Positions 7,002 through 61,900 of a stretch of 64,000 nucleotides of DNA are shown piece after piece. Each line of letters opens with the position of its first letter. The first letter of the stretch is position 1. The translations under genes were made by a program, and so were the position numbers. This DNA is from an uncultured Flavobacteriaceae bacterium (GTDB lineage Bacteria; Bacteroidota; Bacteroidia; Flavobacteriales; Flavobacteriaceae), in the NCBI GenBank assembly GCA_963703125.1, contig OY969790.1, positions 2,575,832 through 2,639,831 of the forward strand. The letters are read 5' to 3'. The notes under the pieces were generated by a model. The model was not told the origin of the DNA. It did no database searches and saw only the letters and a program-made list of their open reading frames with translations.

Positions 7002-7672
7002 AATCAACCTCTTCTTATTATAAAAAATCCACCAATAAAGATTCTTTTAGTCTAAATTTCCTATAAAGCATGAATAATAGCTTGATATGATTTTCAAAAA
7101 AAATCAAATAGTTTTAGGTATTTAGGAAACTGAGGTCAAAAGCGTTAAGTTCATTTTTCATTTAAGTGCTTTAAAGAATATTTATGCTTCGGTGATTTTT
7201 CGATAATTTATTGAGAAATTTTGCATAAAGCCTTGAAACATAAAAAACGATTAAATTTTCAAGGTACAAGCTATGTTATTATAAGACTTGTGAAATATCC
7301 CCTTATCATATATGAATTTCTTACTCCTTTTGAAAGAAAATGTATTGAGTTTAACTTAGCTTGACAATTTATTTACCATTAATCAATATTTGACCATTTT
7401 TGGGACAAATGGAACGCCCGTTCATCGATTGGCTCCGCAATATCGGTAATTGACAGATAATCGATAAACGGTGCATAATAACGAAATAACTATATCTACC
7501 CTGAAAAACCAAGTACATTTATCGATGAAATGCTTTGATGGCAATTTCATTTTCTTCCCCCATTAAAATTAACTTGAATTATTTCGAAAAGGAAAATCCT
7601 ATATATAGAGAGCCTATTGAAATAATTTATTTTCACAATAAATCAAAAATCAGGTTAACAAATGCCAAACCA

Positions 7673-13590: not shown

Positions 13591-14647
13591 GTTTCGCAAT
13601 AAGAAAATCACAGGGATTCTTACGATCTTACCTGAAAATGAGGTTGACTTTGAGGATGAAATTGAAAACTATGATTTTTCAAGAAGTCAATCTATGAAGT
13701 TAAAATTGATAATGGGCTATGGAAAGCGCAAGGTCGTTACAGAGGGTACTACTATCTCTGATTTGTGTGTTTATGGACTAAACTACCTTTTTGAAAGTGG
13801 CCAACTTGATAAAGACTCAATAGATGCAATAGTGTTGGTAACGCAATCTCCAGATTATTTCGTTCCCGCAACTAGTCACATTATTCATGGAAGGTTAGAT
13901 TTAAAAAAGGATATGATTTGTTTAGATATCAATCACGCCTGCTCTGGTTATCCTATAGGCCTTATGCAGGCATTTATGTTATTGGAACAAGATGATATAA
14001 ATAAAGTCTTAGTGCTGAATGCAGATATATTAAGTTCAAAGGTCTCCATTCATGACAGAGGTAGCAGGCCACTTACAGGTGATGGAGCGTCAATTACAAT
14101 TGTCGAAAAAGATTTGGAGAATAGTTTTATCTATGGTGCTGTAATGGCCGATGGAAAAGGATCAGAATCTTTGATGATTCCAGCTGGAGGTTTCAAAATG
14201 CCATCAACTGCCAAGACTGCCGAATTGATGACTGATATTCATGGTAATGTTAGGGCCTTAGATCACTTTGTAATGAAAGGTGATGATGTTTTTAATTTTG
14301 TACAAAGAGAGGTTCCGCCAATGATCGATAATTTACTTCAAAAAGCGGGAATTGATGAGGAGAAAATAGACTACTACTTGTTTCATCAGCCGAACAAGTT
14401 TATGTTAAAAAAACTAGCGGACAAAATGGTGATTCCATATGAAAAGATGCCGAATAATATAGTTGAAAATTTTGGCAATGCCGGAGGGGTCTCTGTACCT
14501 ACTAACATCACCTATAATCTAGGTGATAAACTTTTGAAGAATACTTTTTTGGTTTGTTTGGCCGGTTTTGGAGCTGGGTTAAGCTGGTCATCTTTGATAA
14601 TCAAATTAGGGAAATTGAATTTTTGTGAAACACTTTATTTTAAATAA
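13580..14647 (+). CDS. 3-oxoacyl-ACP synthase III (FabH-like) family protein
   Basis: A Cys-His-Asn triad context is present in NHACSGY, FHQPN and GNAGGVS. Confidence 0.85.
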   Translation: MNFKFRNKKITGILTILPENEVDFEDEIENYDFSRSQSMKLKLIMGYGKRKVVTEGTTISDLCVYGLNYLFESGQLDKDSIDAIVLVTQSPDYFVPATSHIIHGRLDLKKDMICLDINHACSGYPIGLMQAFMLLEQDDINKVLVLNADILSSKVSIHDRGSRPLTGDGASITIVEKDLENSFIYGAVMADGKGSESLMIPAGGFKMPSTAKTAELMTDIHGNVRALDHFVMKGDDVFNFVQREVPPMIDNLLQKAGIDEEKIDYYLFHQPNKFMLKKLADKMVIPYEKMPNNIVENFGNAGGVSVPTNITYNLGDKLLKNTFLVCLAGFGAGLSWSSLIIKLGKLNFCETLYFK

Positions 14648-46283: not shown

Positions 46284-46391
46284 AGGTTTGGTTTAAAAAA
46301 ACGATATGGAAAGTTAACCATAAAAGAGGAATTTGAATTTACTATTGCGGCATCATAAGATTTAGGGGCATTGAATTCTCCAAGACATAAC

Positions 46392-46416
46392 AAAAAACCA
46401 CCCGAAGGTGGTTTTT
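46392..46416. terminator. Bidirectional terminator-like hairpin (A6-CCACC-CGAA-GGTGG-T5)
   Basis: Perfect stem with a CGAA tetraloop. It is flanked by A and T runs. Confidence 0.5.
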
Positions 46417-46685
46417 GAAATAGAGCCGGAAGGATTACCCTGCGGTGCTCCTAAATGGCTGCCAATGCTGCAAATAAAAATACCCATCGCTATCACGATG
46501 GGCATTTAAAATCATTCAAAAACGTTCAAACAAGCTTGGCCTTTTTGAATGCCTTTAGCCGCACGGTATTTTTGAGTGTCGTGGAGCTGGAGACGGCCGA
46601 GCGTATAGAAAATGCCCGGTGGGCATTTTCAGCGAAGGAGCGAGCCGGCGCACTGGCGTTCGACTCCCGCTGGCGTAATGAACAA

Positions 46686-46707
46686 AGCCACCCGAAGGTG
46701 GCTTTTT
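46686..46707 (+). terminator. Intrinsic terminator hairpin (AGCCACC-CGAA-GGTGGCT followed by a T-run)
   Basis: Perfect 7-bp stem with the same tetraloop as 46392-46416. A T run reaches 46707. Confidence 0.55.
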
Positions 46708-46928
46708 GAGTGGAGCCGGAGGGTCTAGAACCTAGTTCTTAAAACCGTTATATATAAGGCGTTTTAAGAGTTTTAATTTTTATGCTCACCGAATAGGTGA
46801 CTTTGTCTGAATAAGAGTTATATCTACAAAGACAAATAATTGCAATACATGGTTTTTGAAAACTGTAGTAATCTAAATACCATTTAATTAAATCTATTAG
46901 CCATACTGTTGCACTACATTAAATATTG

Positions 46929-46961
46929 ATTCGTCTATACAAATCTTCCATTCGACTATAC
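46929..46961 (+). promoter_or_regulatory. Phased direct repeats ATTCGTCTATAC / ATTCGACTATAC (21-nt period); candidate LytTR-type operator
   Basis: The two repeats are 11/12 identical and lie 58-90 nt upstream of the ATG at 47019. Confidence 0.45.
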
Positions 46962-47018
46962 TTGTCTATTTTTTGAATCGAATAATTAGTAATTTGTGTT
47001 ATAGATTAATACTCAAAG

Positions 47019-47420
47019 ATGAATATACTATTAATAGAAGACGATCAAATAGAAGTAATGAAGTTGCAAAGAACAGTTTCAAAACTTGGCTTAAAGCATA
47101 CAATTGTTGAAGCTAAAAATGGTGAAGATGCCTTAGAAATTCTTCAATCTGGTCAAAAATTACCTGATATTATTCTTTTGGATTTAAATATGCCGAGAAT
47201 GAACGGAATAGAATTTTTGGATATTTTAAAAAATGACAATCAATTAAAATATTTGCCCACAATAATATTGACAACATCTGAAAATAGGGCAGACTTGCTA
47301 AAATGTTATGAGGCAGGAATTGCTGGATACGTTGTAAAGCCTTTAAAATACGAAGATTACGAATCTAAAATGAGGAAATTAATGGACTACTGGGAAGTAA
47401 ATCAACTGGTTAAAGGCTAA
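47019..47420 (+). CDS. Single-domain response regulator (CheY-like receiver)
   Basis: 133 aa with EDD at the N-terminus, the phospho-acceptor context IILLDLNMP, and VVKP. Confidence 0.9.
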   Translation: MNILLIEDDQIEVMKLQRTVSKLGLKHTIVEAKNGEDALEILQSGQKLPDIILLDLNMPRMNGIEFLDILKNDNQLKYLPTIILTTSENRADLLKCYEAGIAGYVVKPLKYEDYESKMRKLMDYWEVNQLVKG

Positions 47421-47496
47421 TAAAAAACTTCATTTCACAACATAAATTTTACAATTGTCATAATATTCCTACGTTTGTTGAATTAAAATTTAACAG

Positions 47497-48039
47497 ATGA
47501 AAGGTATTGTATTTACTGAATTTTTAGAAATGGTTGAGGGAACTTTTGGTCTTGAAACTGTTGATACCATTATTGAAAACTCAAATTTACCCTCCGAAGG
47601 TATTTATACTTCTGTAGGAACGTATGATTTCAATGAAATGGTAGCCTTAATCACTGCGCTTCATAATAAGACAAAAGTACCGGTAGATGATCTTATTTAC
47701 ACGTTCGGTCATTTTCTTTTCACCAGTCTTGCTAAGGCACATCCAGAAGTGATATCCAATTACTTATCTCCAATGAATCTCTTGTATTCTATAGAAGATC
47801 ATATTCATGTACATGTTAAAAAGTTATATCCAGATGCAGAGCTTCCAAGTTTTACCATTCTAGATAAAACGGATACATCCATATCCATGATCTATAAATC
47901 ATCCAGAGGACTTTATCGGCTGGCGCATGGTCTTATGGAGAAATGTTTTGAACAGTTCAACAAAACGGCCAAAGTTAGTTATGAACTCATAAAGCAAGAC
48001 GGCACTGAAGTTAAATTTGATATTGTCCAAAATGGATAG
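47497..48039 (+). CDS. H-NOX (heme-NO/O2-binding, HNOB) domain protein
   Basis: 180 aa with MKGIVFTEF at the N-terminus. DHIHVHVKKLYPDAELPSF aligns to the sGC-type proximal-His region. The YxSxR motif is present as YKSSR. Confidence 0.85.
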   Translation: MKGIVFTEFLEMVEGTFGLETVDTIIENSNLPSEGIYTSVGTYDFNEMVALITALHNKTKVPVDDLIYTFGHFLFTSLAKAHPEVISNYLSPMNLLYSIEDHIHVHVKKLYPDAELPSFTILDKTDTSISMIYKSSRGLYRLAHGLMEKCFEQFNKTAKVSYELIKQDGTEVKFDIVQNG

Positions 48040-50404
48040 TCAAGAGAAAGAAATTGAGTTATTAAAACGTGCCCTAACTCGCCAAAAAAAAGCAAGGATT
48101 GCGGCAGAGCAGATTCTAGAGAAAAAATCGAAGGAACTCTACGATGTTACACACCATTTAAAAGAGGCGAATGCCAAGCTAGAGAATCTATTGACCGAGA
48201 AGACTTCTGAACTAGATGGAGTGTTTATCAACATTATTGACCCTTATGTGGTGATGGACATGAGTTTTAATGTGGTTAACATGAACACTTCGGCAAAACA
48301 ATTTTTAGGCTATGACCATACGAAAGAGTGTGTTAACTTAACCAAAATGGTTCATGAGGATTTTGTGGAATATACCGCAGAATCAATGAAATCACTTTTA
48401 AAAGTCGGCGTACTTAATAATTACAGGGCCAAAATCAGGACTAAGGATCAAACCGTTAAATGGGTCGAAATAAATAGTAGTCTAATATATAATCAAGAAA
48501 GAAAGCCTATTGCCGCTCAAGGTATAATAAGGGATATAACGAAGGAAATGGAGATAAAGCAGTTGCTGTCTGAGCAAAAGCGACAACTGGATATTATCTT
48601 GGAGAATTCCCCCTTGGGAGTTGTTCTAATAGCTGAAGGTAAATTCATCAAGGTGAATACGGCTTTTATAGATCTAATAGGTTATGGTGAACCTGAATTA
48701 AAAAACCTTACTGTACATGAAATAACCTACCCCGAAGATAAGAATGTGACTAAAGACTTCTTAGCTAAGATGAAAGATGAGGAGATTGACAATTTCACCG
48801 TTACAAAAAGATACTTGCGTAGAGATGGCAGTATTCTATATGCAAGATTATTGGTCAGTGCCGTAAGAAATATTGATGGTGTTGATGATTATCAAGTTGC
48901 CATTATAGAGGATATTCGCAAGGAAATGGAGGCTGAAGAACGATTAAAGGCTTCTGAGAATAGACTTTCTACGCTTATCTTAAATCTACAAATGGGCGTG
49001 TTGTTAGAAGATGAAAACAGAAAAATACAATTGACCAATCAGATGTTCTGTGATCTCTTTCAAATACCTGCCACTCCAGCGCAAATGGTTGGGGCGGATT
49101 GCACTTCGTCTGCCGAGCAGTCAAAATCACAATTTAAAGACCCAGAGGGTTTTGTAAAGAGAATCGACACCATATTAACTAACAAAAAGACTGTCTTATC
49201 CGATGAGTTGGAAATGATAGATGGTAGGGTTTTAGAAAGGGATTATATCCCCATTTTTAACGAAGATATTTATAAAGGTCATCTTTGGTCCTATCAAGAT
49301 ATAACGCTTAAAAAAAATTATGAGGCTACATTAAGTGCCGAAAGAGAGAAGTATAGTAGTATCATCGCCAACATGAACCTTGGGTTATTAGAAGTCGATA
49401 ATAATGATACTATTCAATTAGTGAATCAAAGTTTCTGTGCCATGAGCGGTTTTTCTGAAATTGAACTTTTGGGAAAAAAGGCAGCGGATGTTCTTAGGGT
49501 TAAAGAGAAAGAGGTCATTAAATCAAATGAGGACAAACGATTAAAAGGTGAATCTGATTCTTATGAAGTGCAAATTTTGGATAAATCGGGTGAAATAAAA
49601 CATTGGCTTATAAGTGGCGCCCCCCGTGTGGATAAAAATAATAATGTTATTGGTTCCATTGGTATTCATTTGGATATTACCAAACAAAAGGTATTAGAAT
49701 TGCAAAAGGAACAATTGGTGCAAGAATTGGAAAACAGTAACAAAGGGCTGCAAGAATACGCACATATTGTTTCGCATGACCTTAAATCACCTTTAAGGAG
49801 TATTAGTGCATTATCTACTTGGTTGCAGGAAGACTATAAAGATATTTTAGATGAGACCGGAAACCAACATTTGCAAATGATGCAAGAAAAGGTAGCTTCA
49901 ATGGATAAATTGATCAGTGGTATTTTGGAATATTCCACAGCCAATAGTTCTAATTTGGATAATACAACGGTAGACTTAAATACGGTTATCGATACTATAA
50001 AAGAAACGATTTATATACCGGATCATGTTGAATTATCGGTTCCTCAAAAGTTACCTAATATTATTGCCGACAAAACCAAAATGCATCAGTTGTTTCAAAA
50101 TATACTTTCAAATGCCGTGGTACATATTGAAAATGAAAAAGGGCTGGTAGAAGTTTTGTTTTTGGATAATGCGGACCAATGGCAATTTACCATTGCCGAT
50201 AATGGGGTAGGAATTCCTGAAAAACATCATAAAAAAATATTCGAAATATTTCAATCTGTAGGTAATAATGAACGGTCAACGGGGATCGGATTATCAATAG
50301 TTAAAAAAATAGTGGATCGGTACAATGGTGAAGTTTGGGTTGAAAGTGAGGTGGGCAATGGTACGAAATTCCATTTTACCCTAAAGAAACAAGACCTAGC
50401 CTAA
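48017..50404 (+). CDS. Multi-PAS sensor histidine kinase (HisKA plus HATPase_c, no receiver domain)
   Basis: 795 aa. It has an N-terminal coiled coil, several PAS-like repeats, the H-box IVSHDLKSPLR and the G-box GIGLSIVKK. It overlaps the H-NOX gene by 23 nt. Confidence 0.9.
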   Translation: MILSKMDSQEKEIELLKRALTRQKKARIAAEQILEKKSKELYDVTHHLKEANAKLENLLTEKTSELDGVFINIIDPYVVMDMSFNVVNMNTSAKQFLGYDHTKECVNLTKMVHEDFVEYTAESMKSLLKVGVLNNYRAKIRTKDQTVKWVEINSSLIYNQERKPIAAQGIIRDITKEMEIKQLLSEQKRQLDIILENSPLGVVLIAEGKFIKVNTAFIDLIGYGEPELKNLTVHEITYPEDKNVTKDFLAKMKDEEIDNFTVTKRYLRRDGSILYARLLVSAVRNIDGVDDYQVAIIEDIRKEMEAEERLKASENRLSTLILNLQMGVLLEDENRKIQLTNQMFCDLFQIPATPAQMVGADCTSSAEQSKSQFKDPEGFVKRIDTILTNKKTVLSDELEMIDGRVLERDYIPIFNEDIYKGHLWSYQDITLKKNYEATLSAEREKYSSIIANMNLGLLEVDNNDTIQLVNQSFCAMSGFSEIELLGKKAADVLRVKEKEVIKSNEDKRLKGESDSYEVQILDKSGEIKHWLISGAPRVDKNNNVIGSIGIHLDITKQKVLELQKEQLVQELENSNKGLQEYAHIVSHDLKSPLRSISALSTWLQEDYKDILDETGNQHLQMMQEKVASMDKLISGILEYSTANSSNLDNTTVDLNTVIDTIKETIYIPDHVELSVPQKLPNIIADKTKMHQLFQNILSNAVVHIENEKGLVEVLFLDNADQWQFTIADNGVGIPEKHHKKIFEIFQSVGNNERSTGIGLSIVKKIVDRYNGEVWVESEVGNGTKFHFTLKKQDLA

Positions 50405-50411
50405 AAGTAAC

Positions 50412-51539
50412 ATGAAAATAGAGCAATCAATAAAAATAGTAAACGGGCCATTTGTATATGAAAATGAAAGAATACAACTTAATAATCCTTTGGTTCTAGT
50501 TTTTGGCGATCGTTTCATGTTGGAACAGGAAGAACTGCTTGCTGAGGTGAAATCCATATATCCTACCGGGCATCTGGTTTTCGGTAGCACTTCTGGTGAA
50601 ATCATTGGAGCTACTGTTTTAGATAATTCGTTGACCATGACTGCGATAGAGTTTGAAAAATCTCAATTTTTGGTCAAGAAAAAGAATGTTTCTGATTTTC
50701 AAAATAACGATTTTGAATTGGGGAAATCACTTTTAAGTGAATTTCCTAAAGAAAATCTGAAGAATATATTTTTAGTGTCAGAGGGTAGTTTTGTGAACGG
50801 TAGTTCTTTAATTTCAGGATTTAAGAACGGAAATCAAGAGGTTAATATTTCTGGTGGACTTTGTGGTGATGGGAATCGGTTTCAAAAGACCCTTTGTTCT
50901 TATAATGAACGACCAAAGGAAGGTGAAGTGGTAGCCATTGGTTTTTATGGTGATACCTTAGAAATCAGTAGTGCAAGTTATGGTGGTTGGTCAACCTTTG
51001 GCCCTGAACGTAGCGTTACTAAATCAAAAGGAAATATATTATTTGAATTGGATGGTAAGCCTGCGTTAGATCTCTACAAGGAGTATTTGGGAGAAAAGTC
51101 GAAAGAATTGCCAAAATCAGCATTACTGTATCCACTTAATGTCTGTGTTGATGACCAACAACCCATTGTACGTACCATATTGAATATTAGTGAAACACAG
51201 AATACAATGGTACTTGCTGGGGATATACCAGAAGGTTCCACAGTGCAATTGATGATGTCTACTGTCGATGATATTGCTGAAGGTGCCTCTATAGCTGCTA
51301 AATTGGCCATGGAAAATCGGGTTCATAAACCCGAATTAGCTATCTTAATTAGTTGCGTAGGAAGAAAACTGGTTATGGGGCAACGTACCGAAGAGGAGAT
51401 TGAAGAAGTAGTTTCCATTATTGGAGAAGATACTGTTGTTACCGGTTTCTATTCTTATGGGGAAATGGCACCATTTTCTGGTCAAGAATCTTGTAGATTG
51501 CATAACCAGACCATGACCTTAACCTTAATTAGCGAATAA
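50412..51539 (+). CDS. FIST-domain sensory protein
   Basis: 375 aa. The C-terminal GFYSYGEMAPF..LHNQTMTLTLISE is characteristic of FIST_C. Confidence 0.8.
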   Translation: MKIEQSIKIVNGPFVYENERIQLNNPLVLVFGDRFMLEQEELLAEVKSIYPTGHLVFGSTSGEIIGATVLDNSLTMTAIEFEKSQFLVKKKNVSDFQNNDFELGKSLLSEFPKENLKNIFLVSEGSFVNGSSLISGFKNGNQEVNISGGLCGDGNRFQKTLCSYNERPKEGEVVAIGFYGDTLEISSASYGGWSTFGPERSVTKSKGNILFELDGKPALDLYKEYLGEKSKELPKSALLYPLNVCVDDQQPIVRTILNISETQNTMVLAGDIPEGSTVQLMMSTVDDIAEGASIAAKLAMENRVHKPELAILISCVGRKLVMGQRTEEEIEEVVSIIGEDTVVTGFYSYGEMAPFSGQESCRLHNQTMTLTLISE

Positions 51540-52597
51540 TGCATTCTTTACTGAGCAGACAATTAAGGAAAAAATTACCGGAGCGTTTTAGGGACGACCC
51601 CGGGCTTCAGGATTTTTTGAAATCCGTAGATCAGTCCTATGAGGATTTTGATGATAAGCTTACCATGCTGCAAAGAGCCACTACCATAAGTTCTAAAGAA
51701 CTGTCTGAAGCTAATAAAGAATTGTCCAATGAAGCCGAAAGGCAAAAATTGGTTTTGCAATCATTAAGCGAAGCAATGGTCAGTCTTAATTTAAACTTGG
51801 GTATTGATCAAGAAAAAGATATTGAAATACTACAAAATATTAAGGTGGAGAAATTGGCGGTCCACATTAAAAACTTGGCCATTAAAATTTCAAAGATCAA
51901 TCAAGAAAAGACTGATTTACTTAATGATTTAGAAGCAAGAAACGAATCTTTAAGTAATTATATACAGATTGTTTCGCATGATTTAAAGTCTCCCTTAAGA
52001 AATATCAACACATTAATGAGTTGGATTCTTGAAGAGGAAAAGGACGGTTTTTCGTTCGAGAGTAAAAAGAACTGTGTGCTGGTAACTCAAAATCTTTCTA
52101 AAATGGAGCAGCTCATTAGTGGTATATTAGATCACGCCACCATTGGGGCGGCGCCTGAACATAGAAGTGAGGTTTCCATTGATGAACTGATGATCGAAGT
52201 TAAAAATAATCTTGATGTTCCTGAGAATGTCACCTTAAAATGGACAGAGCATATGCCGACCATAACTATCGAGAAAATTTGGTTGGAGAAGGTATTTTAC
52301 CATCTTATAAACAATGCCTTAACTGCGGTGAAAAATAGGAGTGAGGGTAAAGTTTATGTAGGTTATGAAGAGGATAATAGCTATTGGAAATTTTCAGTTT
52401 CCGATAATGGTATCGGTATAGCAAATCGTTACCATAAAAGTATATTTGAAATTTTTAAAAAGTTAGAAAATGATACTGCCTCTGCAGGGGTAGGTCTTGC
52501 TATTTCGAAGAAAATAGTAAATCTATACCAAGGAGACATTAGTCTTTCATCAAAGGAAGGTGAGGGTAGTACGTTCTTTTTTTCTCTAAAAAAATAA
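51539..52597 (+). CDS. Cytoplasmic histidine kinase (coiled coil plus HisKA plus HATPase_c)
   Basis: 352 aa with H-box IVSHDLKSPLR and G-box GVGLAISKK. Its start overlaps the FIST stop (TAATG). Confidence 0.85.
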   Translation: MHSLLSRQLRKKLPERFRDDPGLQDFLKSVDQSYEDFDDKLTMLQRATTISSKELSEANKELSNEAERQKLVLQSLSEAMVSLNLNLGIDQEKDIEILQNIKVEKLAVHIKNLAIKISKINQEKTDLLNDLEARNESLSNYIQIVSHDLKSPLRNINTLMSWILEEEKDGFSFESKKNCVLVTQNLSKMEQLISGILDHATIGAAPEHRSEVSIDELMIEVKNNLDVPENVTLKWTEHMPTITIEKIWLEKVFYHLINNALTAVKNRSEGKVYVGYEEDNSYWKFSVSDNGIGIANRYHKSIFEIFKKLENDTASAGVGLAISKKIVNLYQGDISLSSKEGEGSTFFFSLKK

Positions 52598-52599
52598 TT

Positions 52600-52920
52600 A
52601 TGAAGCACGAACCAAACATTTCATATATTATTGAACTTTCAGGAGATGACTCAGACTTTCAAGAAAAGTTCATCAACATTTTAAAGGAAGAATTCCCAGA
52701 AGAAAAAGCCGTTTACCTAAACGCTGTTCAGCAAAAGGATTTTACAAACGCGGTGGAAATAGTACATAAACTCAAACATAAATTCAATATTTTAAGCATG
52801 TATGATGCATACGCTTTAGCGGTCACATATGAATTGGAATTGAAAAATAAAGATCTTGGTAACGATAAGGAATTCATTATAGCTTTAAATGTGGTGGATT
52901 CATACTTAAAAACTATTTAG
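52600..52920 (+). CDS. HPt-like histidine phosphotransfer protein (tentative)
   Basis: 106 aa, predicted helical. VHKLKHKFNIL resembles the HPt HxLKG motif. Confidence 0.45.
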   Translation: MKHEPNISYIIELSGDDSDFQEKFINILKEEFPEEKAVYLNAVQQKDFTNAVEIVHKLKHKFNILSMYDAYALAVTYELELKNKDLGNDKEFIIALNVVDSYLKTI

Positions 52921-52922
52921 CA

Positions 52923-53630
52923 ATGAATTGTATAATTATAGACGATGAGACCGCAGCTAGAGCGGTTGTTAGTCATCTTTGTTCCCAAATCACGGAATTA
53001 GATGTAATCGAAGAATTTGACAATGCGATAGACGCCATTAAATTTCTGAACCAACAAGTGATTGATGTGGTGTTCCTGGACATTCATATGCCAGGATTTT
53101 CGGGAATCGATTTTGTTCAAACACTTAAAAACCCGCCCCATATTGTATTGACTACCTCGGATACGGAATTTGCTATCGAGGCATACGAATATGAATCCAT
53201 AGTTGATTATTTGGTAAAGCCAATTACTCTAAACCGTTTTGAGAAGGCAATTAAAAAAATAAGGAACGTAAACGAGAACAGTAAACACAAAGAAAATGTG
53301 GTTCATAAAACACCTTTGAACCAAGAGCTTTATATCAATATAGATCGTAGACTTATCAAATTGAAGTTTGACGAAATTCAATTGATTATGGCACAAGGTG
53401 ACTATATCGATATAACTACCGAGAGTAAAAAATATAGGGTTCATACAACATTGAAGAAAATCAAGGAAAAATTACCGGAAACTATTTTTCTTCAAATTCA
53501 TCGTTCATACATCATTAACTTCACAAAAATCATTGATATCGAGGATAATAGTGTTTTAATTGAAAAAAACGTTGTTCCCATAAGTCGTTCTAGTAGACCA
53601 GAATTAATGAGAAGACTTAATTTGGTATAA
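52923..53630 (+). CDS. LytTR-family response regulator (receiver plus LytTR DNA-binding domain)
   Basis: 235 aa with VVFLDIHMP and YLVKP in the receiver. The C-terminal LytTR pattern is IHRSYIIN..PISRS. Confidence 0.9.
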   Translation: MNCIIIDDETAARAVVSHLCSQITELDVIEEFDNAIDAIKFLNQQVIDVVFLDIHMPGFSGIDFVQTLKNPPHIVLTTSDTEFAIEAYEYESIVDYLVKPITLNRFEKAIKKIRNVNENSKHKENVVHKTPLNQELYINIDRRLIKLKFDEIQLIMAQGDYIDITTESKKYRVHTTLKKIKEKLPETIFLQIHRSYIINFTKIIDIEDNSVLIEKNVVPISRSSRPELMRRLNLV

Positions 53631-53826
53631 TTTTTTCTAAGAGAAATATCTGTCAAAAAATTCAATAGTATTCTCCCTTTGATCTTAGGCCTAGATTCAA
53701 TGAACATGATACACTGAATACTGTAATATTAAAAGGTTTAAGTAATTAAGGCTGATTTTGATTTTGCCCTCTTAGAGGTAAAATTAATTACATTAAAAAT
53801 CAATTGGACTGTTGCAATTATCCAAT

Positions 53827-55899
53827 TTATTGATTTTCAATTCTTGTTTTCATCTTAGTATAGTAAATAGGCTTGTCTAGAAATAGCCATTTCAGTTTGC
53901 ACCCAACTTCAGTAAATTCAAAACCTGCTGCGGTAGCCGATGCAATGTTGCTATACTTTCCATATAGATTGGCACTAAATCTTTTTGAGAATTGATGCTG
54001 TACTGCTGCTTCAGCCCTGAAAATTGTTGTGTTGGGATCTTCTTCGACCTTTTGGAATCCGGTTGCCGCGCTGATCATATAAGTTGTCTTTTCAGAAAAA
54101 TTTCCACGTAGATCAGTAAAGATTTCAACGGCCTGATACTGTTCAGGACTAAAGTAAATAGTGGGTACTTGATTTTTAAACGTAATATATTGATAGTTTA
54201 CGCCCATTTTTAAAGCAGGTTTTTGCAATAGGGTGTAGTATAAAGAAGTAAATAGTAGGTTTCGGGTATTCGAATCACTTTGTTGGGTATGCATTAACTG
54301 TGTGTACCAACCTAAATTAATGTTAGTGCCCAAATTGTAATTTAATCCGTAATGGTGTTGTATAATTTCACGTTCAATAAGTTCCGCATTAAAGTTTTGA
54401 ACTTCTCGCTGATAGCCTAAAGTTAGATTCTGCAATTTTAAGGGCTCTAGCATTAATCTGGCCTCTAAGACCGGTTGGGTATAGGCATCGTCCATAAATC
54501 TGGAATTGTTAAAACCAATAACTGTTTTTAAAATGGTTTTGGGAAAAAGTTTGTACCGTAGACCGGCCAAGACTACATGAGAATTGGCTTTGTTATTGGT
54601 AACCGAATTCTCGGTTGTCCTATAAAAATAGGATACAGTTGTTCTGAATTTAGTGGAAAAGGGTACTTCAACTGTAGTATTGGTGTAAAATGCCACATTA
54701 TTGCCGTTATCAAAAGTATAGGCCGCATGTTCCTCAATACTAGGGGTATGCATTAGATTTAGTTTTTCTATAAAACCTAAAGCGTCCTTTTGATTTTCGT
54801 AAAAGGCGAGGGTTTTGTAAGCCATCTCGTAGGCTGGCAGTATTCTATCAGCTGCAAAAAGAGCGTTTGCCTTACCCAAATTCCCGTCAAAAGACGTACT
54901 ATCCTTTTTTAAAATAGCATCATAACTTTCTAAACTGCTTTTTACATCTCCGGTATATAGTCCCAAGGTTGCTTTTAATCCAAAAACCCAACTGGGAATT
55001 GGTTTATGATTTTCTAAACTATCAATTTGTTGCTTAGCTTGTTTAAATTTTCTGTTCCATATCATCGCTTGTATGTACCTGTCATAAGTACGTTCCTTGA
55101 GTTCCGTATCTGTTATTTTTGAAACTTTGATTTTAGCACGTTCAGCTATTTTAAGCGCTTCTTTGTCCTGTTCTCCAATATGTTCTGCTAATGCTATGCC
55201 GTTTAAGGCTGTAATTGAATCCTTTGGTGAGGTAGCATATCTTTGATACATCACCTTTGCACTATCAACCTGTTTTGTTATTAGATATAGGTTGGCTAGA
55301 TTGAGCAATGCATCTTTGTCTTCAGGAAAATCGATAAAGATTTTATTCAATAGTTCTTCTCCTTGGGTATAGTTCTGTTTATTTACAAACGTATTTGCGT
55401 AGCCCAAATTCATATATTTTCTAGAGGTAAGGGCACTAGTATTTCCAGGTTTGAGCAACAAAGCATTTTCGACCATTTCAAGCGCTGCTCTATACTCCTT
55501 TAAATTACTAAGTGTATTCGCATAGCCAAGAACGGCACCAAATTGATTTGGATTTTCCTTTACCAGTTCTGCATAAAGTGGTCTGGCCTTTTCATATTCC
55601 TCTGCCCACAAAAAAGACTCATTATAATTTATTAGTATTTCGAAGTCGTTGGGGTATTCTTTTAGCAACTGAGCAAATAAGTCAGTTGCCTTTTTTGGTT
55701 CTCCACTTAATCCTACTGCGCGCGCATAGCATAATTGGGCTGTTTTATTGTTAGGGTCGGATTTTAGATATGCTTCAAAAAATTCTTCGGCTTCTGGAAA
55801 ATTTCCCTTCTCCAATAAACCAAAGCCTTTGGTCATATCGGTTTGGGCCCAAATGATAGTAGTTGAAAATAGCAGGATTTGTAAGAGAAGTGTACGCAT
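53827..55899 (-). CDS. Outer-membrane TPR-repeat plus C-terminal beta-barrel protein (PgaA/BcsC/PelB-like export scaffold, tentative)
   Basis: 690 aa with a signal peptide. The N-terminal roughly 380 aa are TPR-like helical repeats. The C-terminal roughly 300 aa show an alternating beta-strand pattern ending in an aromatic-rich terminus. Confidence 0.55.
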   Translation of the reverse strand: MRTLLLQILLFSTTIIWAQTDMTKGFGLLEKGNFPEAEEFFEAYLKSDPNNKTAQLCYARAVGLSGEPKKATDLFAQLLKEYPNDFEILINYNESFLWAEEYEKARPLYAELVKENPNQFGAVLGYANTLSNLKEYRAALEMVENALLLKPGNTSALTSRKYMNLGYANTFVNKQNYTQGEELLNKIFIDFPEDKDALLNLANLYLITKQVDSAKVMYQRYATSPKDSITALNGIALAEHIGEQDKEALKIAERAKIKVSKITDTELKERTYDRYIQAMIWNRKFKQAKQQIDSLENHKPIPSWVFGLKATLGLYTGDVKSSLESYDAILKKDSTSFDGNLGKANALFAADRILPAYEMAYKTLAFYENQKDALGFIEKLNLMHTPSIEEHAAYTFDNGNNVAFYTNTTVEVPFSTKFRTTVSYFYRTTENSVTNNKANSHVVLAGLRYKLFPKTILKTVIGFNNSRFMDDAYTQPVLEARLMLEPLKLQNLTLGYQREVQNFNAELIEREIIQHHYGLNYNLGTNINLGWYTQLMHTQQSDSNTRNLLFTSLYYTLLQKPALKMGVNYQYITFKNQVPTIYFSPEQYQAVEIFTDLRGNFSEKTTYMISAATGFQKVEEDPNTTIFRAEAAVQHQFSKRFSANLYGKYSNIASATAAGFEFTEVGCKLKWLFLDKPIYYTKMKTRIENQ

Positions 55900-56015
55900 T
55901 ATTTCAGGTAAGATTAATACTACAAAACTTAACGTTCGTATTTGTTTTTTATTTCTAATTTCTTGAAGTATAAAGGTAGATAGTCTTCTTTCTAGCCGGA
56001 AGTAGGTTAATTGTT

Positions 56016-56048
56016 ATTCAACTATGCATAATTGCCATCGAACTATTT
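56016..56048 (+). promoter_or_regulatory. Phased repeats ATTCAACTATGC / ATCGAACTATTT (21-nt period) related to the 46929 repeats
   Basis: The first repeat matches ATTCGACTATAC at 10/12 positions. The AACTAT cores at 56020 and 56041 are 21 nt apart. The pair lies 79-111 nt upstream of the ATG at 56127. Confidence 0.35.
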
Positions 56049-56126
56049 TGTGTTGTTATGGTTGGCTAAGTGAGAGATATTTGCTTCATCAATAAAAGAA
56101 AACTTAACCTATTTAAAACATTTATT

Positions 56127-56429
56127 ATGGCATTACAAATTTCAGAAGCAAGAGGAGTATTTTCAGTATTTGGAGAATTGAACAGTTATACTGTAGCAAT
56201 TCTTACAAGACACATGAGTAATTATATTAAAAAGGACCAACGTGTCATTTTAAATTTAGAAAGGGTAAAAAAAATAGATGTTTGCGCGGCCTATACCATT
56301 AAGAAATTATTTATGGATGCAGTAGGTAAGAGCAGTATTTTTTCAATAGTGGCCATGGAAAATAAACAAGTGATGGATGTTTTTAATGAAACACAAATTA
56401 CATATATCGTAAGTAATGATCGGTACTAG
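56127..56429 (+). CDS. STAS-domain protein (anti-sigma-factor-antagonist-like)
   Basis: The likely start is MALQISEARGVFSVFGEL, and the layout LNLERVKKIDVCAAYTIKKL is STAS-like. No partner kinase or phosphatase is present in the window. Confidence 0.5.
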   Translation: MALQISEARGVFSVFGELNSYTVAILTRHMSNYIKKDQRVILNLERVKKIDVCAAYTIKKLFMDAVGKSSIFSIVAMENKQVMDVFNETQITYIVSNDRY

Positions 56430-56748
56430 ATATGTTTAGATCATAGTTTTCCCCCAGCACGTTGTTTTGGGTTGTCTACTTTATTGATTAGGTAGCTATT
56501 CATACAAAGTGCTTTTTTTATGGGATAGCAGATACTACAGTGGTATCTACTTTCCATTTTAATAGTAAAGTAGCACTTCCAGATTTATCGATAGTATTAT
56601 TTAAGATTTTTTAGGTAGGTAAAAGGCTTATCGTCAAAGGAATACCATTCGTCTACAGTAAATATCTATCCATCCTAAACTTCTCATTTTAAAGTATAGA
56701 TCATCGCAAATTTGCTTCAGAAATAAACTTAACCTAAAGTAAAAAAAG

Positions 56749-57987
56749 ATGAAACTAGCAATTGTTACAGCATTCCCACCGAGTAAAGTTACCTTGACCG
56801 AATACGGATATTATTTGGTAAAACATTTTCGATTACAGAAAGAAGTGACCGAAATTATTTTGATTACCGATAAAACACCAGAAGAAAAAGATCTTAATTT
56901 TAATGAGGAAGGGTGTAAGATTACCGTGAAAGAATGCTGGAATTTTAATGACTATTCAAATATTTTTAAAATCAGCAAGGTTTTAACGGACTCAAAACCA
57001 GATGCCGTATTGTTCAATCTTCAATTTTTAAAATTCGGAGATAAAAAAATACCTGCAGCGTTAGGTTTGCTACTGCCTTTTGTTTGCAAATTCAAGGGAA
57101 TTCCAACGATCTCTTTACTGCACAATATTTTAGAGCAAGTAGATTTGGATAATGCTGGTTTTACCTCGAACAAGGTATTACAGAAAGTATATAATTTTAT
57201 CGGTACCACGTTAACAAAATTTGTATTGGCATCAGATGTATTGGCGGTGACCATGAGCCAATATAAAAATATACTTGACAAAAAATACAAAGCAAAGAAT
57301 GTTGCCATAATTCCTCATGGCGCTTTTGACACGCCACCGGAGCCCGATTATACATTAAAACAAGGACCCAAACAAATCATGGCATTTGGCAAGTTTGGAA
57401 CTTATAAAAGAGTAGAAGTTTTAATCGAAGCTGTAGAATTGATTAGAAAAAAAACGAATGAAAATCTTGAAATTGTTATTGCGGGTACAGATAGCCCTAA
57501 TACACCGGGTTATTTACAGAACATAAAAGAAAAGTATGCACACGTAGAACAGTTACGTTTTACGGGGTATGTGGCAGAAGAAGATGTACCCGTTATTTTT
57601 AATGAAAGTGCAATGGTCATTTTCCCCTATACTTCCACAACAGGCAGTTCTGGAGTTTTACACCAAGCGGGTAGTTACGGTAAAGCAGTGGTATTGCCAG
57701 ATTTAGGAGATTTGAGTGTCTTGTTAAAAGAAGAAGGCTATAGAGGTGAATTTTTTGAACCTGAAAGACCGGAATCTTTGGCAAAAGCTATCGAAAAGAT
57801 ATTACAGAATGACTCATATAGGGTCAACCTGGGTAAGGTTAATTATAGTGCGGCTTGTTCGCTACCCATGTCAAAAATTACCCAAATGTATATCGATTAT
57901 TTTGAAGTTATTAAAATGGTCAAGTCCAAAGGATTTAGTTTGGATGTGAATAAAATTGATAAGAAACTACTAAGTCAAAGAGTTTAG
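56749..57987 (+). CDS. Glycosyltransferase family 4 (copy 1 of a paralog pair)
   Basis: 412 aa with FPYTSTTGSSGVLHQAGSYGKAVVLPD. By eye it is about 70 percent identical to the 60671-61900 product. Confidence 0.8.
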   Translation: MKLAIVTAFPPSKVTLTEYGYYLVKHFRLQKEVTEIILITDKTPEEKDLNFNEEGCKITVKECWNFNDYSNIFKISKVLTDSKPDAVLFNLQFLKFGDKKIPAALGLLLPFVCKFKGIPTISLLHNILEQVDLDNAGFTSNKVLQKVYNFIGTTLTKFVLASDVLAVTMSQYKNILDKKYKAKNVAIIPHGAFDTPPEPDYTLKQGPKQIMAFGKFGTYKRVEVLIEAVELIRKKTNENLEIVIAGTDSPNTPGYLQNIKEKYAHVEQLRFTGYVAEEDVPVIFNESAMVIFPYTSTTGSSGVLHQAGSYGKAVVLPDLGDLSVLLKEEGYRGEFFEPERPESLAKAIEKILQNDSYRVNLGKVNYSAACSLPMSKITQMYIDYFEVIKMVKSKGFSLDVNKIDKKLLSQRV

Positions 57988-58190: not shown

Positions 58191-59330
58191 ATGAAAATAC
58201 TAACTATAGACGATCAGCAATTAATTCTCTTATCCGTAGAGAAACGTTTAATAGAACTAGGTTACACCGTCAAGACCGCGAATAGTGGTCAAAAAGGGAT
58301 AGAATTGTTCAAGTCATTTGAACCTGACCTTGTTCTTGTAGATATCAATATGCCAGATATGTCTGGTTTGGATGTGGTAAAGCATATTAAAAAAGAGAGT
58401 CAGAGAAATACTCCTGTTCTCATAATGTCCGGTAATACAGAGGAAAATATTATCATGAACGGTTTTACGCTGGGTATCGATGATTACATGAAAAAACCGG
58501 TGAGTTTAGATGAAATGGCCGCTCGTATCAAAAGGCTTATCGGTGCTCCTGAAGTTTCGAACAGCTCTAAGGGTTCATTAGATGCCAGAATGTTGCAGAA
58601 GAATTGTGTAGGTGTAGTTATACCTTGCTATAATGAAGAAGAACGGTTATTGGGAAAAGAATTTAAGGATTTCGCCCACAAAAACCTAGGCTACCATTTA
58701 TGTTTTGTAAACGATGGTAGTACCGATAGAACTCTTGAAATTTTGAGGGAATTAGAAAAAGGAAGCGAGAGTAATATTAGCATTTATAATTGCGAAAAAA
58801 ATGGCGGGAAGGCAGAAGCTGTTCGACAAGGTATGTTGCATTTAGCGCAGGATCCACAACTTGACTACATTGGTTTCTTGGATGCCGATTTGTCGACCGA
58901 TTTTAGGGATTTTGATGATTTAGTGGAAACCTTGGATACCTCCAATTTTAAGATTGTTAGTGGTTCTAGAATGAGCCGCATGGGTGCTGATATTACCAAG
59001 GAATCTGCACGTAAATTGATTAGTATGTCCATCAATCTTATTATCAGGACCATCTTAAAAATGCCTTTTAACGATACGCAATGTGGTGCCAAAGTGATGG
59101 ATAAATCATTGATTCCGCTACTTTTTAATAAACCGTTTATCACCAAATGGTTGTTCGATGTTGAAATGTTCATGAGAATGCGCAAATATTATGGTAAAAC
59201 GAAAGCCAAAGAATTGATTTGCGAACAGCCACTTAAAAGATGGATACATGCAGATGGTTCCAAGTTGTCCATGAAAGACTCCGTGAAAATTGTTGGCCAA
59301 TTGGCCAAGATAGCAATTTCATATCGCTAG
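58191..59330 (+). CDS. Response-regulator receiver fused to a GT2 glycosyltransferase (polyprenyl-phosphate hexosyltransferase-like)
   Basis: 379 aa. The receiver shows IDDQ, LVLVDINMPDMSG and YMKKP. The GT2 part shows VVIPCYNEE, FVNDGSTD, FLDADL and NDTQCGAK. Confidence 0.85.
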   Translation: MKILTIDDQQLILLSVEKRLIELGYTVKTANSGQKGIELFKSFEPDLVLVDINMPDMSGLDVVKHIKKESQRNTPVLIMSGNTEENIIMNGFTLGIDDYMKKPVSLDEMAARIKRLIGAPEVSNSSKGSLDARMLQKNCVGVVIPCYNEEERLLGKEFKDFAHKNLGYHLCFVNDGSTDRTLEILRELEKGSESNISIYNCEKNGGKAEAVRQGMLHLAQDPQLDYIGFLDADLSTDFRDFDDLVETLDTSNFKIVSGSRMSRMGADITKESARKLISMSINLIIRTILKMPFNDTQCGAKVMDKSLIPLLFNKPFITKWLFDVEMFMRMRKYYGKTKAKELICEQPLKRWIHADGSKLSMKDSVKIVGQLAKIAISYR

Positions 59331-59364: not shown

Positions 59365-60645
59365 ATGACTGCAATACAATTAGCCGTTAAAAGAATTTCG
59401 CCTCAACAATTATTCATGGGGAGTGCCTTTTTGGTAAATGGCGGCAATTATCTTTACAATTTGTTGTTGGGTAGAATGTTAGGCCCTGAAGCCTTTGCAG
59501 ATGCTGCCCTTCTGGTGACTTTATTGCTCGTATTATCCTTTATTGGGATGACCTTTCAATTGGCGACCACAAAATTTGCCGTTCTTTTTGACGAAGAACG
59601 ATGGACCAATTTTAAGAATACGATGTATCGTTATGCGTTAGTTTTTGGATTGGTTACCGGTACTTTAATCTTGTTTGGCGCTAATTACTTACAGGTCCTT
59701 TTTCGTACGGAGAATCACTGGATGTTCGTGGTATTTGCCATTTTCATGCCACTTTACTTTGTAATGAGTGTAAACCGAGGCAGGTTTCAAGGAAGGCAGG
59801 AGTTCGGAAAATTGGCCACTACCTACCAAACCGAAATGTGGAGCAGATTGTTGCTCACCTTTATATTCCTTTGGATATTACCTTTTCAATCTGCCATTTT
59901 AATCGCATTGGGCATTGGCGTTTCCTTTGTCTTTGGACTCATTCCTTCTGATCTGAAAGAAGTGAATATTCTATCGAAGGCAAAAATGGATAAGGTCGAT
60001 TTTAAGCAAGTATGGATATTTATAGGACTTACCGCTGGTTATGAATTAACCCAAATTATCATAAACAATAGTGATATTCTTCTGGTAAAACATTATTTCA
60101 ATGATACCGATGCCGGACTTTATTCTTCCCTAGCACTTATTGGTAGGGTAGTCTACTTTGTGGCTTGGATGTTCGTTATGCTGTTAATGCCTACCGTAAT
60201 TCAAAAACGAAAGGATGGCGAGGCCACTGCGCCCGTACTTTTTAAATATGTTTTGTTTATTGGAATATTGTCTGCATGTATCGTAGGTGTTTGTTTTTTA
60301 ATGCCAGAATTCATCATTCAGGTAATGTTCGGTGATGCATATTTATCTGTTGCCGGTTTACTTTGGCAGTATGCTTTGGCAACTTCCTTGTTCGCCATAT
60401 CCAACATATTCGCCTATTATTTTTTATCACTTGACCATTACGCTCCGGTTATTCTATCAGGTATTTTGGGATTGTCCCAGGTGCTTTTAATTGTGTTCTT
60501 CCACGATAGTCTTGCCGCTGTAGTACAGGTTCAAATTTTGGCAATGATTCTATTATTGGTAGCCCAACTGGTTTTCTTTTTTATCAAGAATAAAAAAGTT
60601 AGAATAGAGAAAAATACCAACCAATTAACCACCAGTTTGGATTAA
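59365..60645 (+). CDS. MOP-superfamily oligosaccharide flippase-like membrane protein
   Basis: 426 aa with about 12 TM segments. The N-terminal NGGNYLYNLLLGRMLGP is typical of Wzx/polysaccharide biosynthesis proteins. Confidence 0.65.
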   Translation: MTAIQLAVKRISPQQLFMGSAFLVNGGNYLYNLLLGRMLGPEAFADAALLVTLLLVLSFIGMTFQLATTKFAVLFDEERWTNFKNTMYRYALVFGLVTGTLILFGANYLQVLFRTENHWMFVVFAIFMPLYFVMSVNRGRFQGRQEFGKLATTYQTEMWSRLLLTFIFLWILPFQSAILIALGIGVSFVFGLIPSDLKEVNILSKAKMDKVDFKQVWIFIGLTAGYELTQIIINNSDILLVKHYFNDTDAGLYSSLALIGRVVYFVAWMFVMLLMPTVIQKRKDGEATAPVLFKYVLFIGILSACIVGVCFLMPEFIIQVMFGDAYLSVAGLLWQYALATSLFAISNIFAYYFLSLDHYAPVILSGILGLSQVLLIVFFHDSLAAVVQVQILAMILLLVAQLVFFFIKNKKVRIEKNTNQLTTSLD

Positions 60646-60670: not shown

Positions 60671-61900
60671 ATGAGATTAGCAATTGTTACCGCCTACCCG
60701 CCAAGTAAAGTTACTTTAGTAGAGTACGGTTATTATTTAGTGAAACATTTTAGATTGCAGGAGCGCGTAACGGAATTGATCTTGATTACCGACCGTACCG
60801 AAGCTTCCAAAGATCTTGATTTTGAAGAAGAAGGGTGTAAGATTACCATAGAAGAATGTTGGAGTTTCAATAGTTACAACAATATATTGAGTATAAACAA
60901 AGCGCTATCTAAAACCAAACCGGATGCCGTGCTGTTCAATCTCCAATTTTTAAAATTTGGGGATAAAAAAGTACCCGCTGCTTTAGGGTTGTTGCTGCCT
61001 TATGTTTGCAAACTGAAAGGTATACCAACAATTTCCCTGCTACACAATATTCTAGAGAAAGTAGATTTGGACAATGCCGGTTTTACCAAAAATCCTATCC
61101 TACAAAAAATATACAATCTCATCGGAACCACGTTGACACGTTTTGTTTTGGCTTCTGATGTACTTGCGGTTACCATTAGTAAATATGTCACCATATTAGA
61201 AGATAAGTACAAAGTAAGAAACGTTGCCCTTGTTCCCCATGGTTCTTTTGAAACGCCACCAGAGCCTTCTTATATTTTACCTAAAGGACCAAAACAAGTG
61301 ATGGCCTTTGGAAAATTTGGAACGTATAAAAAAATAGAGATCCTTATTGAGGCGGTAGAATTGATTCGCGCTAGAAGTACTGAGGATATTGAAATTGTCA
61401 TTGCAGGAACAGATAGTCCCAATACACCTGGATATTTAGATTCCATAAAAGAAAAATACAGTCATGTTCAACAAATTAGGTTTACAGGTTATGTGGCCGA
61501 ACAAGATGTGCCCAAGCTTTTTGGTGAAAGTGCTGTTACTGTTTTTCCTTATACCTCTACAACAGGAAGTTCTGGGGTGCTACACCAAGCGGGTAGTTAT
61601 GGTAACGCTGTTGTATTACCAGATTTAGGTGATTTGAGCACACTGGTAAAGGAAGAAGGATATGTAGGCGAATTTTTTGATGCCTATGATGCATCCTCCT
61701 TGGCCAATGCCATAGAAAGAATATTGGTGAACGATGCGCATAGGATAGAAATAGGTAAAACTAATTTCAAAGCCGCCTGTTCATTGCCGATGTCTGAAAT
61801 AACGAAGATGTATCTTGATTACTTTGAGGCCATAAAGAAGTCAAAGGAACAAGGGTTCAATTTAGATGTTTCCAATAAAAGTTCAGAATTGGTACACTAA
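60671..61900 (+). CDS. Glycosyltransferase family 4 (copy 2 of the paralog pair)
   Basis: 409 aa, collinear with the 56749-57987 product. Confidence 0.8.
   Translation: MRLAIVTAYPPSKVTLVEYGYYLVKHFRLQERVTELILITDRTEASKDLDFEEEGCKITIEECWSFNSYNNILSINKALSKTKPDAVLFNLQFLKFGDKKVPAALGLLLPYVCKLKGIPTISLLHNILEKVDLDNAGFTKNPILQKIYNLIGTTLTRFVLASDVLAVTISKYVTILEDKYKVRNVALVPHGSFETPPEPSYILPKGPKQVMAFGKFGTYKKIEILIEAVELIRARSTEDIEIVIAGTDSPNTPGYLDSIKEKYSHVQQIRFTGYVAEQDVPKLFGESAVTVFPYTSTTGSSGVLHQAGSYGNAVVLPDLGDLSTLVKEEGYVGEFFDAYDASSLANAIERILVNDAHRIEIGKTNFKAACSLPMSEITKMYLDYFEAIKKSKEQGFNLDVSNKSSELVH

Follow-up and report, generated by a model that had tools for sequence, protein, structure and literature searches.

A tandem repeat conserved upstream of flavobacterial H-NOX operons as the predicted operator of a LytTR regulator linked to an exopolysaccharide locus

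A 64,000-nt stretch of genomic DNA from an uncultured Flavobacteriaceae bacterium (contig OY969790.1, positions 2,575,832 to 2,639,831; hereafter the window) carries two direct repeats at 46929-46961, upstream of an operon that begins with the gene of a receiver-only response regulator (RR1), encodes a haem NO/O2-binding (H-NOX) sensor protein and two histidine kinases, and ends with a LytTR-family response regulator. Our analysis suggested that these repeats most probably make up a tandem (head-to-tail) operator, each repeat being one half-site, of the LytTR regulator encoded at 52923-53630; from this operator and its like, RR1 and an exopolysaccharide locus downstream of the operon would be activated. 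The repeats are conserved in orthologous loci, keep a fixed phase to each other and a fixed distance to a -7 promoter element, recur at several promoters of the same neighbourhood and co-occur with the LytTR gene.

Conservation of the repeat pair upstream of RR1

Reading of the window together with a repeat finder placed ATTCGTCTATAC at 46929-46940 and ATTCGACTATAC at 46950-46961, identical in 11 of 12 positions and 21 nt apart from start to start, with the ATG of RR1 (47019) lying 90 nt past the distal and 58 nt past the proximal repeat. A preliminary description, made by a model from the letters of the window, had given these repeats with the same coordinates, identity, spacing and distance of 58-90 nt to the ATG, all of which proved exact on re-reading. 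Judged inside the window, the pair by itself is mildly to moderately unusual, which is suggestive and not decisive: pairs of 12-mers with at most one mismatch at a distance of 21 nt were observed twice in 64 kb, compared to 0.27 expected from Markov-1 simulations, and 11 such pairs were counted when summed over distances of 13-40 nt. Because this excess is modest, the case must come from cross-genome comparison. The 12-mer of the preliminary description, used as a search pattern with two mismatches allowed, gave 12 matches in the window against 8.8 expected, a chance-level and uninformative result, and a position weight matrix (PWM) derived from orthologues was therefore needed.

The H-NOX protein was scanned against one genome per species, yielding 80 loci (16.5 kb per genome, 1.21 Mb in total) from which the source species is absent. 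All 80 loci belong to Flavobacteriaceae, including Spongiimicrobium, Maribacter, Zobellia, Flagellimonas/Muricauda, Arenibacter and Cellulophaga, with 69-81% protein identity, and the gene order RR1, H-NOX, PAS-domain histidine kinase, an optional pair of FIST-domain protein and second histidine kinase (HK2), Hpt-like protein and LytTR regulator is kept among them. The PWM built from the 200-nt regions upstream of RR1 in these loci defined a family 14-mer, CCATTC[GA][TC]C[TG]ACA[CG], in which C6, C9, A11 and A13 are invariant. The conserved unit thus starts 2 nt upstream of each repeat as described initially; the two copies in the window are referred to below as the distal (D) and proximal (P) boxes (Table 1). 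The repeat is present within these 200 nt in almost every one of the 80 loci, in one to three copies, and of 53 pairs of neighbouring copies, 52 keep a spacing of exactly 21 nt. Copy number varies, many RR1 promoters having one strong box and some having three in 21-nt phase, while the position orthologous to D is occupied in nearly all loci. In an alignment anchored on the D box, information content is concentrated in the two boxes, in a TTTG at +66..+69 and in a weak, in-phase third position 21 nt further upstream. A third box at that position in the window (46906-46919), weakly conserved as the position is in the orthologues, is in phase but scores -3.9 bits and was rejected as unsupported.

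Among the loci in which the presence or absence of the LytTR gene was readable, 69 carry it and 3 lack it. Phylogenetic footprinting, which had been set beforehand as a possible refutation, found the repeats conserved upstream of the orthologous operons in 69/69 LytTR-carrying loci. Judged by this comparison of sequences, the repeats are a real conserved control site, and chance is untenable because the same repeat occupies the same place in all these loci and because the 21-nt spacing is so rigidly kept. The view that AT-rich intergenic DNA produced the repeat by chance could draw on the modest excess of pairs in the window and on the chance-level number of single-copy matches to the initial 12-mer. 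Sequence, spacing and position are, however, kept across at least 69 genomes whose proteins are merely ~70-80% identical, and we consider this view already refuted by the comparative evidence, with practically no probability left to it.

Promoter geometry and the adjoining exopolysaccharide locus

The TTTG at +66..+69 corresponds to the conserved portion of the sigma-A -7 box of Bacteroidota, TAnnTTTG, which occupies -12..-5 in Flavobacterium (PMC9723704). Upstream of RR1 in the window, the predicted position of a putative -7 box (Table 1) would put the transcription start near 47001, and D and P would therefore extend over -74..-61 and -53..-40, respectively. In the anchored alignment of orthologous RR1 promoters, the stretch from the P box to the -7 box holds no conserved -33 element, which is to be expected of an activator-dependent promoter. 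A scan for E. coli-type -35/-10 elements gave chance-level results and is irrelevant to Bacteroidota promoters.

Scanning of the window with the PWM gave four hits of at least 10 bits, namely D, P, a box at 56645-56658 and a lone 10.8-bit hit at 7418, and solely D, P and the 56645 box reach 12 bits or more. The 56645 box, located in front of a glycosyltransferase operon, is followed by TTTG at 56711-14, again exactly at +66, and the orthologous boxes sit 98-119 nt before GT1/GT4b homologues. A possible degenerate box pair, with TTTG at 56080-83 (+66), lies 113 nt before the ATG of a STAS-domain gene (56127); its offsets are those of strong boxes before STAS homologues in four orthologous loci (L002, L048, L015 and L017). 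The -7 regions of the STAS (56076-56089) and glycosyltransferase (56707-56720) promoters share an identical 10-mer, ATTTGCTTCA, exceeding what the TTTG consensus needs.

Across the 1.21 Mb of orthologous loci, 166 PWM hits of at least 15 bits were obtained, whereas ~12 were expected (simulated, ~3 per 0.3 Mb). The 58 hits that fall outside RR1 promoters had not been used in PWM training and served as an independent validation set. Of these, 57 match the sense strand of the gene, and in 48 a TTTG stands at exactly +66, compared to a TTTG background of 0.8% per position. These hits lie ~100-300 nt upstream of homologues of the STAS gene, GT1/GT4b, the flippase gene and a small open reading frame (ORF) just after the LytTR gene. 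In the RR1 promoters and at the 48 independent sites, the element is located as LytTR sites are, directly upstream of the predicted core promoter and in fixed orientation. Position, strand and offset thus mark the box as an element coupled to promoters, and these promoters form a small regulon grouped around the LytTR gene. The preliminary description had spoken of an autoregulatory operator; its view of the repeats as an operator is supported, but the role would not be solely autoregulatory, as the same box also precedes genes of the adjacent exopolysaccharide locus.

The small ORF was found in Zobellia uliginosa (L039), where a LytTR box with TTTG at +66 is located right after the LytTR stop codon (13791-14002 of the locus), with a 38-aa ORF predicted to encode a membrane protein, MKANLLYILSNKGAAIRLIGVLTSVIIGIVLAVMSIWG, behind it; L039 is the one locus in which this ORF and its TTTG offset were checked. 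A box just after the LytTR gene is present in at least 12 further loci, such as L030, L041, L052, L068, L006, L024, L033 and L036. The corresponding part of the window (53631-53826) contains no such box or small ORF.

Assignment of the boxes to the LytTR regulator

A box of at least 10 bits is present in all 69 LytTR-carrying loci and in 0/3 loci without the LytTR gene (Fisher p=1.7e-5, a value to be read with the possibility that the three losses represent a single event). In the latter, L027 and L035 (Pseudozobellia) and L038 (Euzebyella), the Hpt-like gene is directly followed by the convergent TPR gene, and the best PWM score upstream of RR1 is below 0. The Response_reg and LytTR domains of the 52923-53630 product bear out the initial annotation of the last operon gene as a LytTR regulator, and its LytTR domain is the sole DNA-binding domain that Pfam detects among the proteins of the cluster. 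The protein shows full-length similarity to the BtsR and LytR models, below the equivalog cut-off. A sequence search of the PDB with its LytTR domain returned nothing significant (best LytTR-domain match 3d6w, E=0.22).

Known LytTR sites consist of repeats of 9-11 nt with spacers of 11-13 nt (PMC4847170), as in the ComE sites, where a 12-mer linker separates two 9-bp repeats (PMC4005675), and the AgrA repeats are placed just upstream of the core promoters P2 and P3 (PMC4227749). The boxes of the window and of the orthologues fit this pattern, being imperfect direct repeats with a period of ~21 bp. The pattern invoked in the preliminary description, paired direct repeats of ~9 bp with a gap of ~12 bp, agrees with the first two of these reports and with the 21-nt period found here, and its reading of the repeats as a LytTR operator gains support from conservation, architecture, the AlgR-like core described below and co-occurrence with the LytTR gene. 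The boxes are well supported as the predicted operator of the operon's own LytTR regulator, because this is the sole DNA-binding protein of the cluster, the regulon adjoins its gene and the architecture matches published sites.

Several points weigh against this assignment and need to be set beside it. The three LytTR-less genomes, two of Pseudozobellia and one of Euzebyella, may reflect one evolutionary event. The choice of regulator rests on guilt by association, and the element is a predicted operator with a proposed binder and a proposed direction of control. The survey covers 16.5 kb per genome, and LytTR paralogues may be encoded elsewhere in the genome. In the window itself, the -7 box matches the TTTG part alone, with the TA part unmatched (4/6), and both boxes are weaker than the consensus, D starting with TG instead of CC and both having T instead of C at position 12. 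In addition, a promoter-like element inside the operon may make transcription of the LytTR gene largely independent of the boxes, which weakens the case for autoregulation.

It follows from the scope of the survey that the boxes could be a genuine operator of some other factor, either a LytTR paralogue or an unrelated tandem-repeat binder encoded elsewhere, with the LytTR regulator of the operon acting on other targets. The possibly single loss event and the indirect nature of the evidence on binder identity speak for this possibility. We nevertheless regard it as quite unlikely, given that in many genera every box-bearing promoter is found no more than a few kb away from this LytTR gene, that the boxes vanish where the gene is absent, and that the repeats have the length, spacing and position usual for LytTR sites (PMC4847170, PMC4005675). 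Much further from the evidence is the proposal that the boxes are -35-like and -10-like elements recognised by an alternative, for instance ECF-type, sigma factor. Such promoters typically measure 22-23 nt from one element start to the next, little more than the 21 nt seen here, and an anti-sigma-antagonist-like STAS gene is nearby, but both elements have the same sequence and form a direct repeat, unlike a -35 and a -10 element, and the variable number of boxes (one strong box at many promoters, three in phase at some), the sigma-A-type TTTG conserved 66 nt downstream in 48 of the 58 independent cases and the start codon ~70 nt past the P box make this proposal highly improbable.

The internal promoter-like element is located in the 76-nt gap between RR1 and the H-NOX gene (Table 1). 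The pattern TTCACAACA-N18-28-CCTACNTTT is exact in 45 of the 80 loci, including the three without LytTR, suggesting that the genes from H-NOX to LytTR are probably served by a LytTR-independent promoter of their own, of which the TTTCACAACA part (about -48..-39) may be bound by some further factor. The boxes would therefore directly control RR1, and the LytTR gene would be reached by read-through alone. The gap after RR1 showed no terminator-like hairpin, which makes read-through, and with it positive autoregulation of LytTR, plausible as a possibility; the genes are tightly packed from H-NOX to LytTR. The initial claim of autoregulation is thus only partly borne out: the tight packing and the lack of a terminator-like hairpin are compatible with it, and the conserved LytTR-independent element in front of the H-NOX gene tells against it; as an alternative, feedback may run through RR1 alone, acting as a relay intermediate or a phosphate sink.

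The same element bears on the direction of control. The LytTR regulator might bind the boxes and repress, or the feedback might be negative, with only RR1 being induced and acting as a phosphate sink that damps the relay, as could be argued from the internal promoter-like element and from the absence of an output domain in RR1. This appears rather unlikely, since the boxes (-74..-40) end before the core promoter begins, keep a fixed helical phase to the -7 box and come with no conserved -33 element, a classic activator geometry, and since read-through from RR1 into the H-NOX gene is plausible. Activation by the operon's own LytTR regulator remains our preferred reading.

Proposed circuit, related systems and neighbouring features

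In the mechanism we propose, H-NOX together with PAS and FIST inputs would modulate the kinases, and phosphate would be passed to the LytTR regulator, with RR1 and the Hpt-like protein as possible intermediates. A phosphorylated LytTR dimer would then bind the two 14-bp boxes on one face of the helix, 21 bp corresponding to two helical turns, and recruit sigma-A RNA polymerase to promoters without a good -33 element through the fixed 66-bp geometry. Transcription of RR1 would be activated and, by read-through, that of the H-NOX, kinase, Hpt-like and LytTR genes would also be raised, while the same regulator, box and -7 distance would activate the glycosyltransferase operon and probably the STAS gene. 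Such a module would link an H-NOX signal, probably nitric oxide (NO), to the synthesis of matrix polysaccharide. It is a tentative extension, and one we put forward with some doubt, that a single circuit of this kind operates throughout Flavobacteriaceae, running from H-NOX (NO) and PAS/FIST kinases through RR1 and the Hpt-like 106-aa protein to a LytTR regulator which recognises an AlgR-like CCATTCGTC core at a rigid 66 bp from the -7 TTTG and switches on exopolysaccharide synthesis and export, with feedback via RR1.

The core of the family consensus, CCATTCGTC, agrees in 8 of 9 positions with the core of AlgR sites in Pseudomonas aeruginosa, CCGTTCGTC (PMC4064291). The exact AlgR core occurs in the orthologous loci L020, L026, L045, L069 and L001, whereas the window copies TGATTCGTC and CCATTCGAC match it in 6/9 and 7/9 positions, respectively. 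The likeness to AlgR sites noted in the preliminary description is therefore real at the level of the family, as a resemblance and not as membership. AlgR is likewise a LytTR response regulator and controls an exopolysaccharide locus, as proposed for the regulator studied here, alginate in that case and a GT4/GT2/flippase cluster in this one, and the resemblance of the cores, notable as both regulators would control exopolysaccharide loci, is a lead. The layout differs: algD and algC carry single 9-mer AlgR sites whose distances and orientations vary widely (-470, -394, -45, +163; PMC4064291), not a tandem phased by 21 bp and held at one distance from the promoter.

Operators of the ComE, AgrA and PlnC type in Firmicutes quorum sensing share the arrangement, with two imperfect direct repeats at a period of ~21 bp (9 bp plus a 12-bp linker for ComE, PMC4005675) that directly precede the core promoter from which the regulator's operon is transcribed (PMC4227749) and recur at a few further promoters. 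The present case differs in belonging to Bacteroidota, with a -7 TAnnTTTG promoter in place of -35/-10, in its different and longer box (14 conserved positions), in the many orthologous promoters with one strong box and weak flanking boxes, and in its input, which would come from H-NOX, PAS-kinase and FIST proteins and not from a peptide pheromone. Among curated protein models, BtsR (YehT) of E. coli is the closest to the 52923-53630 product over its full length (E=4.6e-39), but the score of 134 bits against an equivalog cut-off of 246 bits means that this protein is no orthologue. YpdB and YehT of E. coli likewise bind a direct repeat with a spacer of ~11-13 nt (PMC4847170), although the YpdB box, GGCATTTCAT, differs from the family box. 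In contrast to the membrane sensors of LytS/LytTR-type systems, the cognate kinases here are soluble and PAS/H-NOX-associated. On the input side, the Shewanella HnoK and Vibrio HqsK-LuxU-LuxO networks also have an H-NOX gene adjoining a histidine kinase gene, a response-regulator output and a link to biofilm or matrix (PMC8738867), and the 106-aa protein would be a possible Hpt intermediate comparable to Vibrio LuxU; the output here would, however, be a LytTR transcription factor instead of a c-di-GMP enzyme or a sigma-54 activator.

The literature searched contained no paper linking H-NOX with LytTR or with Flavobacteriaceae, and no description of this box there. LytTR tandem-repeat operators are well known as a kind; new in this case are the consensus, the rigid geometry at a Bacteroidota promoter and the regulon. 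If the proposal holds, no operator consensus or activation geometry would, to our knowledge and from a search that was not exhaustive, have been given before for a LytTR regulator acting at a -33/-7 promoter, and AlgR would be joined by a second, independent example of an exopolysaccharide locus under the control of this core. Little has been mapped of transcription-factor sites and activator geometry in Bacteroidota, a phylum with -33/-7 promoters that differ from the E. coli paradigm, and a precise predicted operator (14-bp box, 21-bp phase, 66-bp offset to -7) with a small LytTR regulon is provided here. Dozens of marine genera of Flavobacteriaceae, Maribacter and Zobellia among them, have kept the LytTR regulator, and the regulon suggests how these bacteria, which are associated with surfaces and algae, may tie matrix production to nitric oxide or a different diatomic gas. 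Links between H-NOX and biofilm have so far been documented mainly in Proteobacteria. With a core near-identical to the AlgR box, the question whether LytTR recognition codes are kept across phyla becomes testable.

Table 1 Predicted genes, boxes, promoter elements and hairpins in the window
Feature	Position	Strand	Remarks
Distal box D	46927..46940	+	TGATTCGTCTATAC, holds the 46929-40 repeat; PWM 12.2 bits
Proximal box P	46948..46961	+	CCATTCGACTATAC, holds the 46950-61 repeat; PWM 17.6 bits; starts 21 nt after D
Putative sigma-A -7 box	46989..46996	+	GTAATTTG; TTTG 46993-96 at +66..+69 from D start, offset as in orthologues
RR1, receiver-only response regulator	47019..47420	+	First gene after the boxes; Pfam Response_reg E=2e-23; orthologues 68-82% identical in all loci
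Internal promoter-like element	47433..47477	+	TTTCACAACA (47433-42), 27 nt, perfect -7 box TACGTTTG (47470-77)
H-NOX sensor protein	47497..48039	+	Pfam HNOB E=4.8e-39, full-length alignment
Multi-PAS histidine kinase	48017..50404	+	Pfam PAS x3-4, HisKA, HATPase_c
FIST-domain sensor protein	50412..51539	+	Pfam FIST + FIST_C; optional
Second histidine kinase HK2	51539..52597	+	Pfam HATPase_c E=2.7e-20
106-aa protein (P106), possibly Hpt phosphotransfer	52600..52920	+	Pfam Hpt weak: E=0.006, 17.2 bits, below the 24.6-bit cut-off; HKLKH motif visible
LytTR-family response regulator, proposed box binder	52923..53630	+	Pfam Response_reg + LytTR (LytTR E=2.5e-18)
TPR/BcsC_C-like gene	53827-55899	-	Convergent; in exopolysaccharide-type locus downstream of LytTR
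Possible degenerate box pair	56014..56048	+	TTATTCAACTATGC (56014-27) / CCATCGAACTATTT (56035-48), 21 nt apart; 3.1 and -3.5 bits (weak)
STAS gene	56127-56429		Anti-sigma-antagonist-like
Second target box	56645..56658	+	Perfect consensus CCATTCGTCTACAG, 24.3 bits, best window hit; 104 nt before ATG 56749 of glycosyltransferase operon
GT4 glycosyltransferase	56749-57987		Exopolysaccharide-type locus
Receiver-GT2 fusion	58191-59330		Exopolysaccharide-type locus
Polysacc_synt_3 flippase	59365-60645		Exopolysaccharide-type locus
Second GT4	60671-61900		Exopolysaccharide-type locus
Hairpin 1	46393-416		AAAAACCACCCGAAGGTGGTTTTT, then GAGCCGGA[AG]GG
Hairpin 2	46686-709		AAAGCCACCCGAAGGTGGCTTTTT, then GAGCCGGA[AG]GG
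Hairpin 3	46478-507		AAATACCCATCG...CGATGGGCATTT
Hairpin 4	46610-30		AAAATGCCCGGTGGGCATTTT

Among the operon products, the H-NOX translation has a readable YxSxR motif at residues 133-137 (Y133, S135, R137), and H102, H104 and H106 are visible, with the putative proximal His assigned by the numbering of Tt H-NOX. Many orthologous loci, for example L001, L009, L011 and L014, gave no match to the FIST gene. In loci without it, the sole HK2-like match overlaps the PAS-kinase gene and the Hpt-like gene directly follows that kinase. The FIST gene and HK2 appear to form a second input module, present in some loci and missing from others, that feeds the same LytTR output.

P106 gave no NCBIfam match in addition to its weak Hpt match in Pfam. 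Its gene is directly upstream of the LytTR gene in nearly all LytTR-carrying orthologous loci, with L073 as the exception. Combined with the receiver-only RR1, P106 could form a split phosphorelay in which phosphate passes from the kinase to RR1, on to the Hpt protein and finally to LytTR. In the exopolysaccharide-type locus, the product of 58191-59330 is a receiver domain fused to a family-2 glycosyltransferase inside the operon behind the 56645 box, which suggests a second, post-translational phosphorylation input on polysaccharide synthesis.

The intergenic region upstream of the boxes is unusually long (735 nt) and contains a cluster of GC-rich hairpins at 46390-46735 (Table 1). Searches of the window and of this region for tRNA, tmRNA and Rfam families returned nothing at or near gathering scores, and the GTTCGACTCC-like stretch at ~46658 is no tRNA. 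The hairpin segment (46390-46730) was also considered as the boundary of an island or mobile element that might explain the repeats, and this was rejected, the segment being repeated internally only, absent from the orthologous loci and unrelated to the boxes. The hairpin cluster possibly represents small unannotated transcripts or the remnants of a small repeat element.

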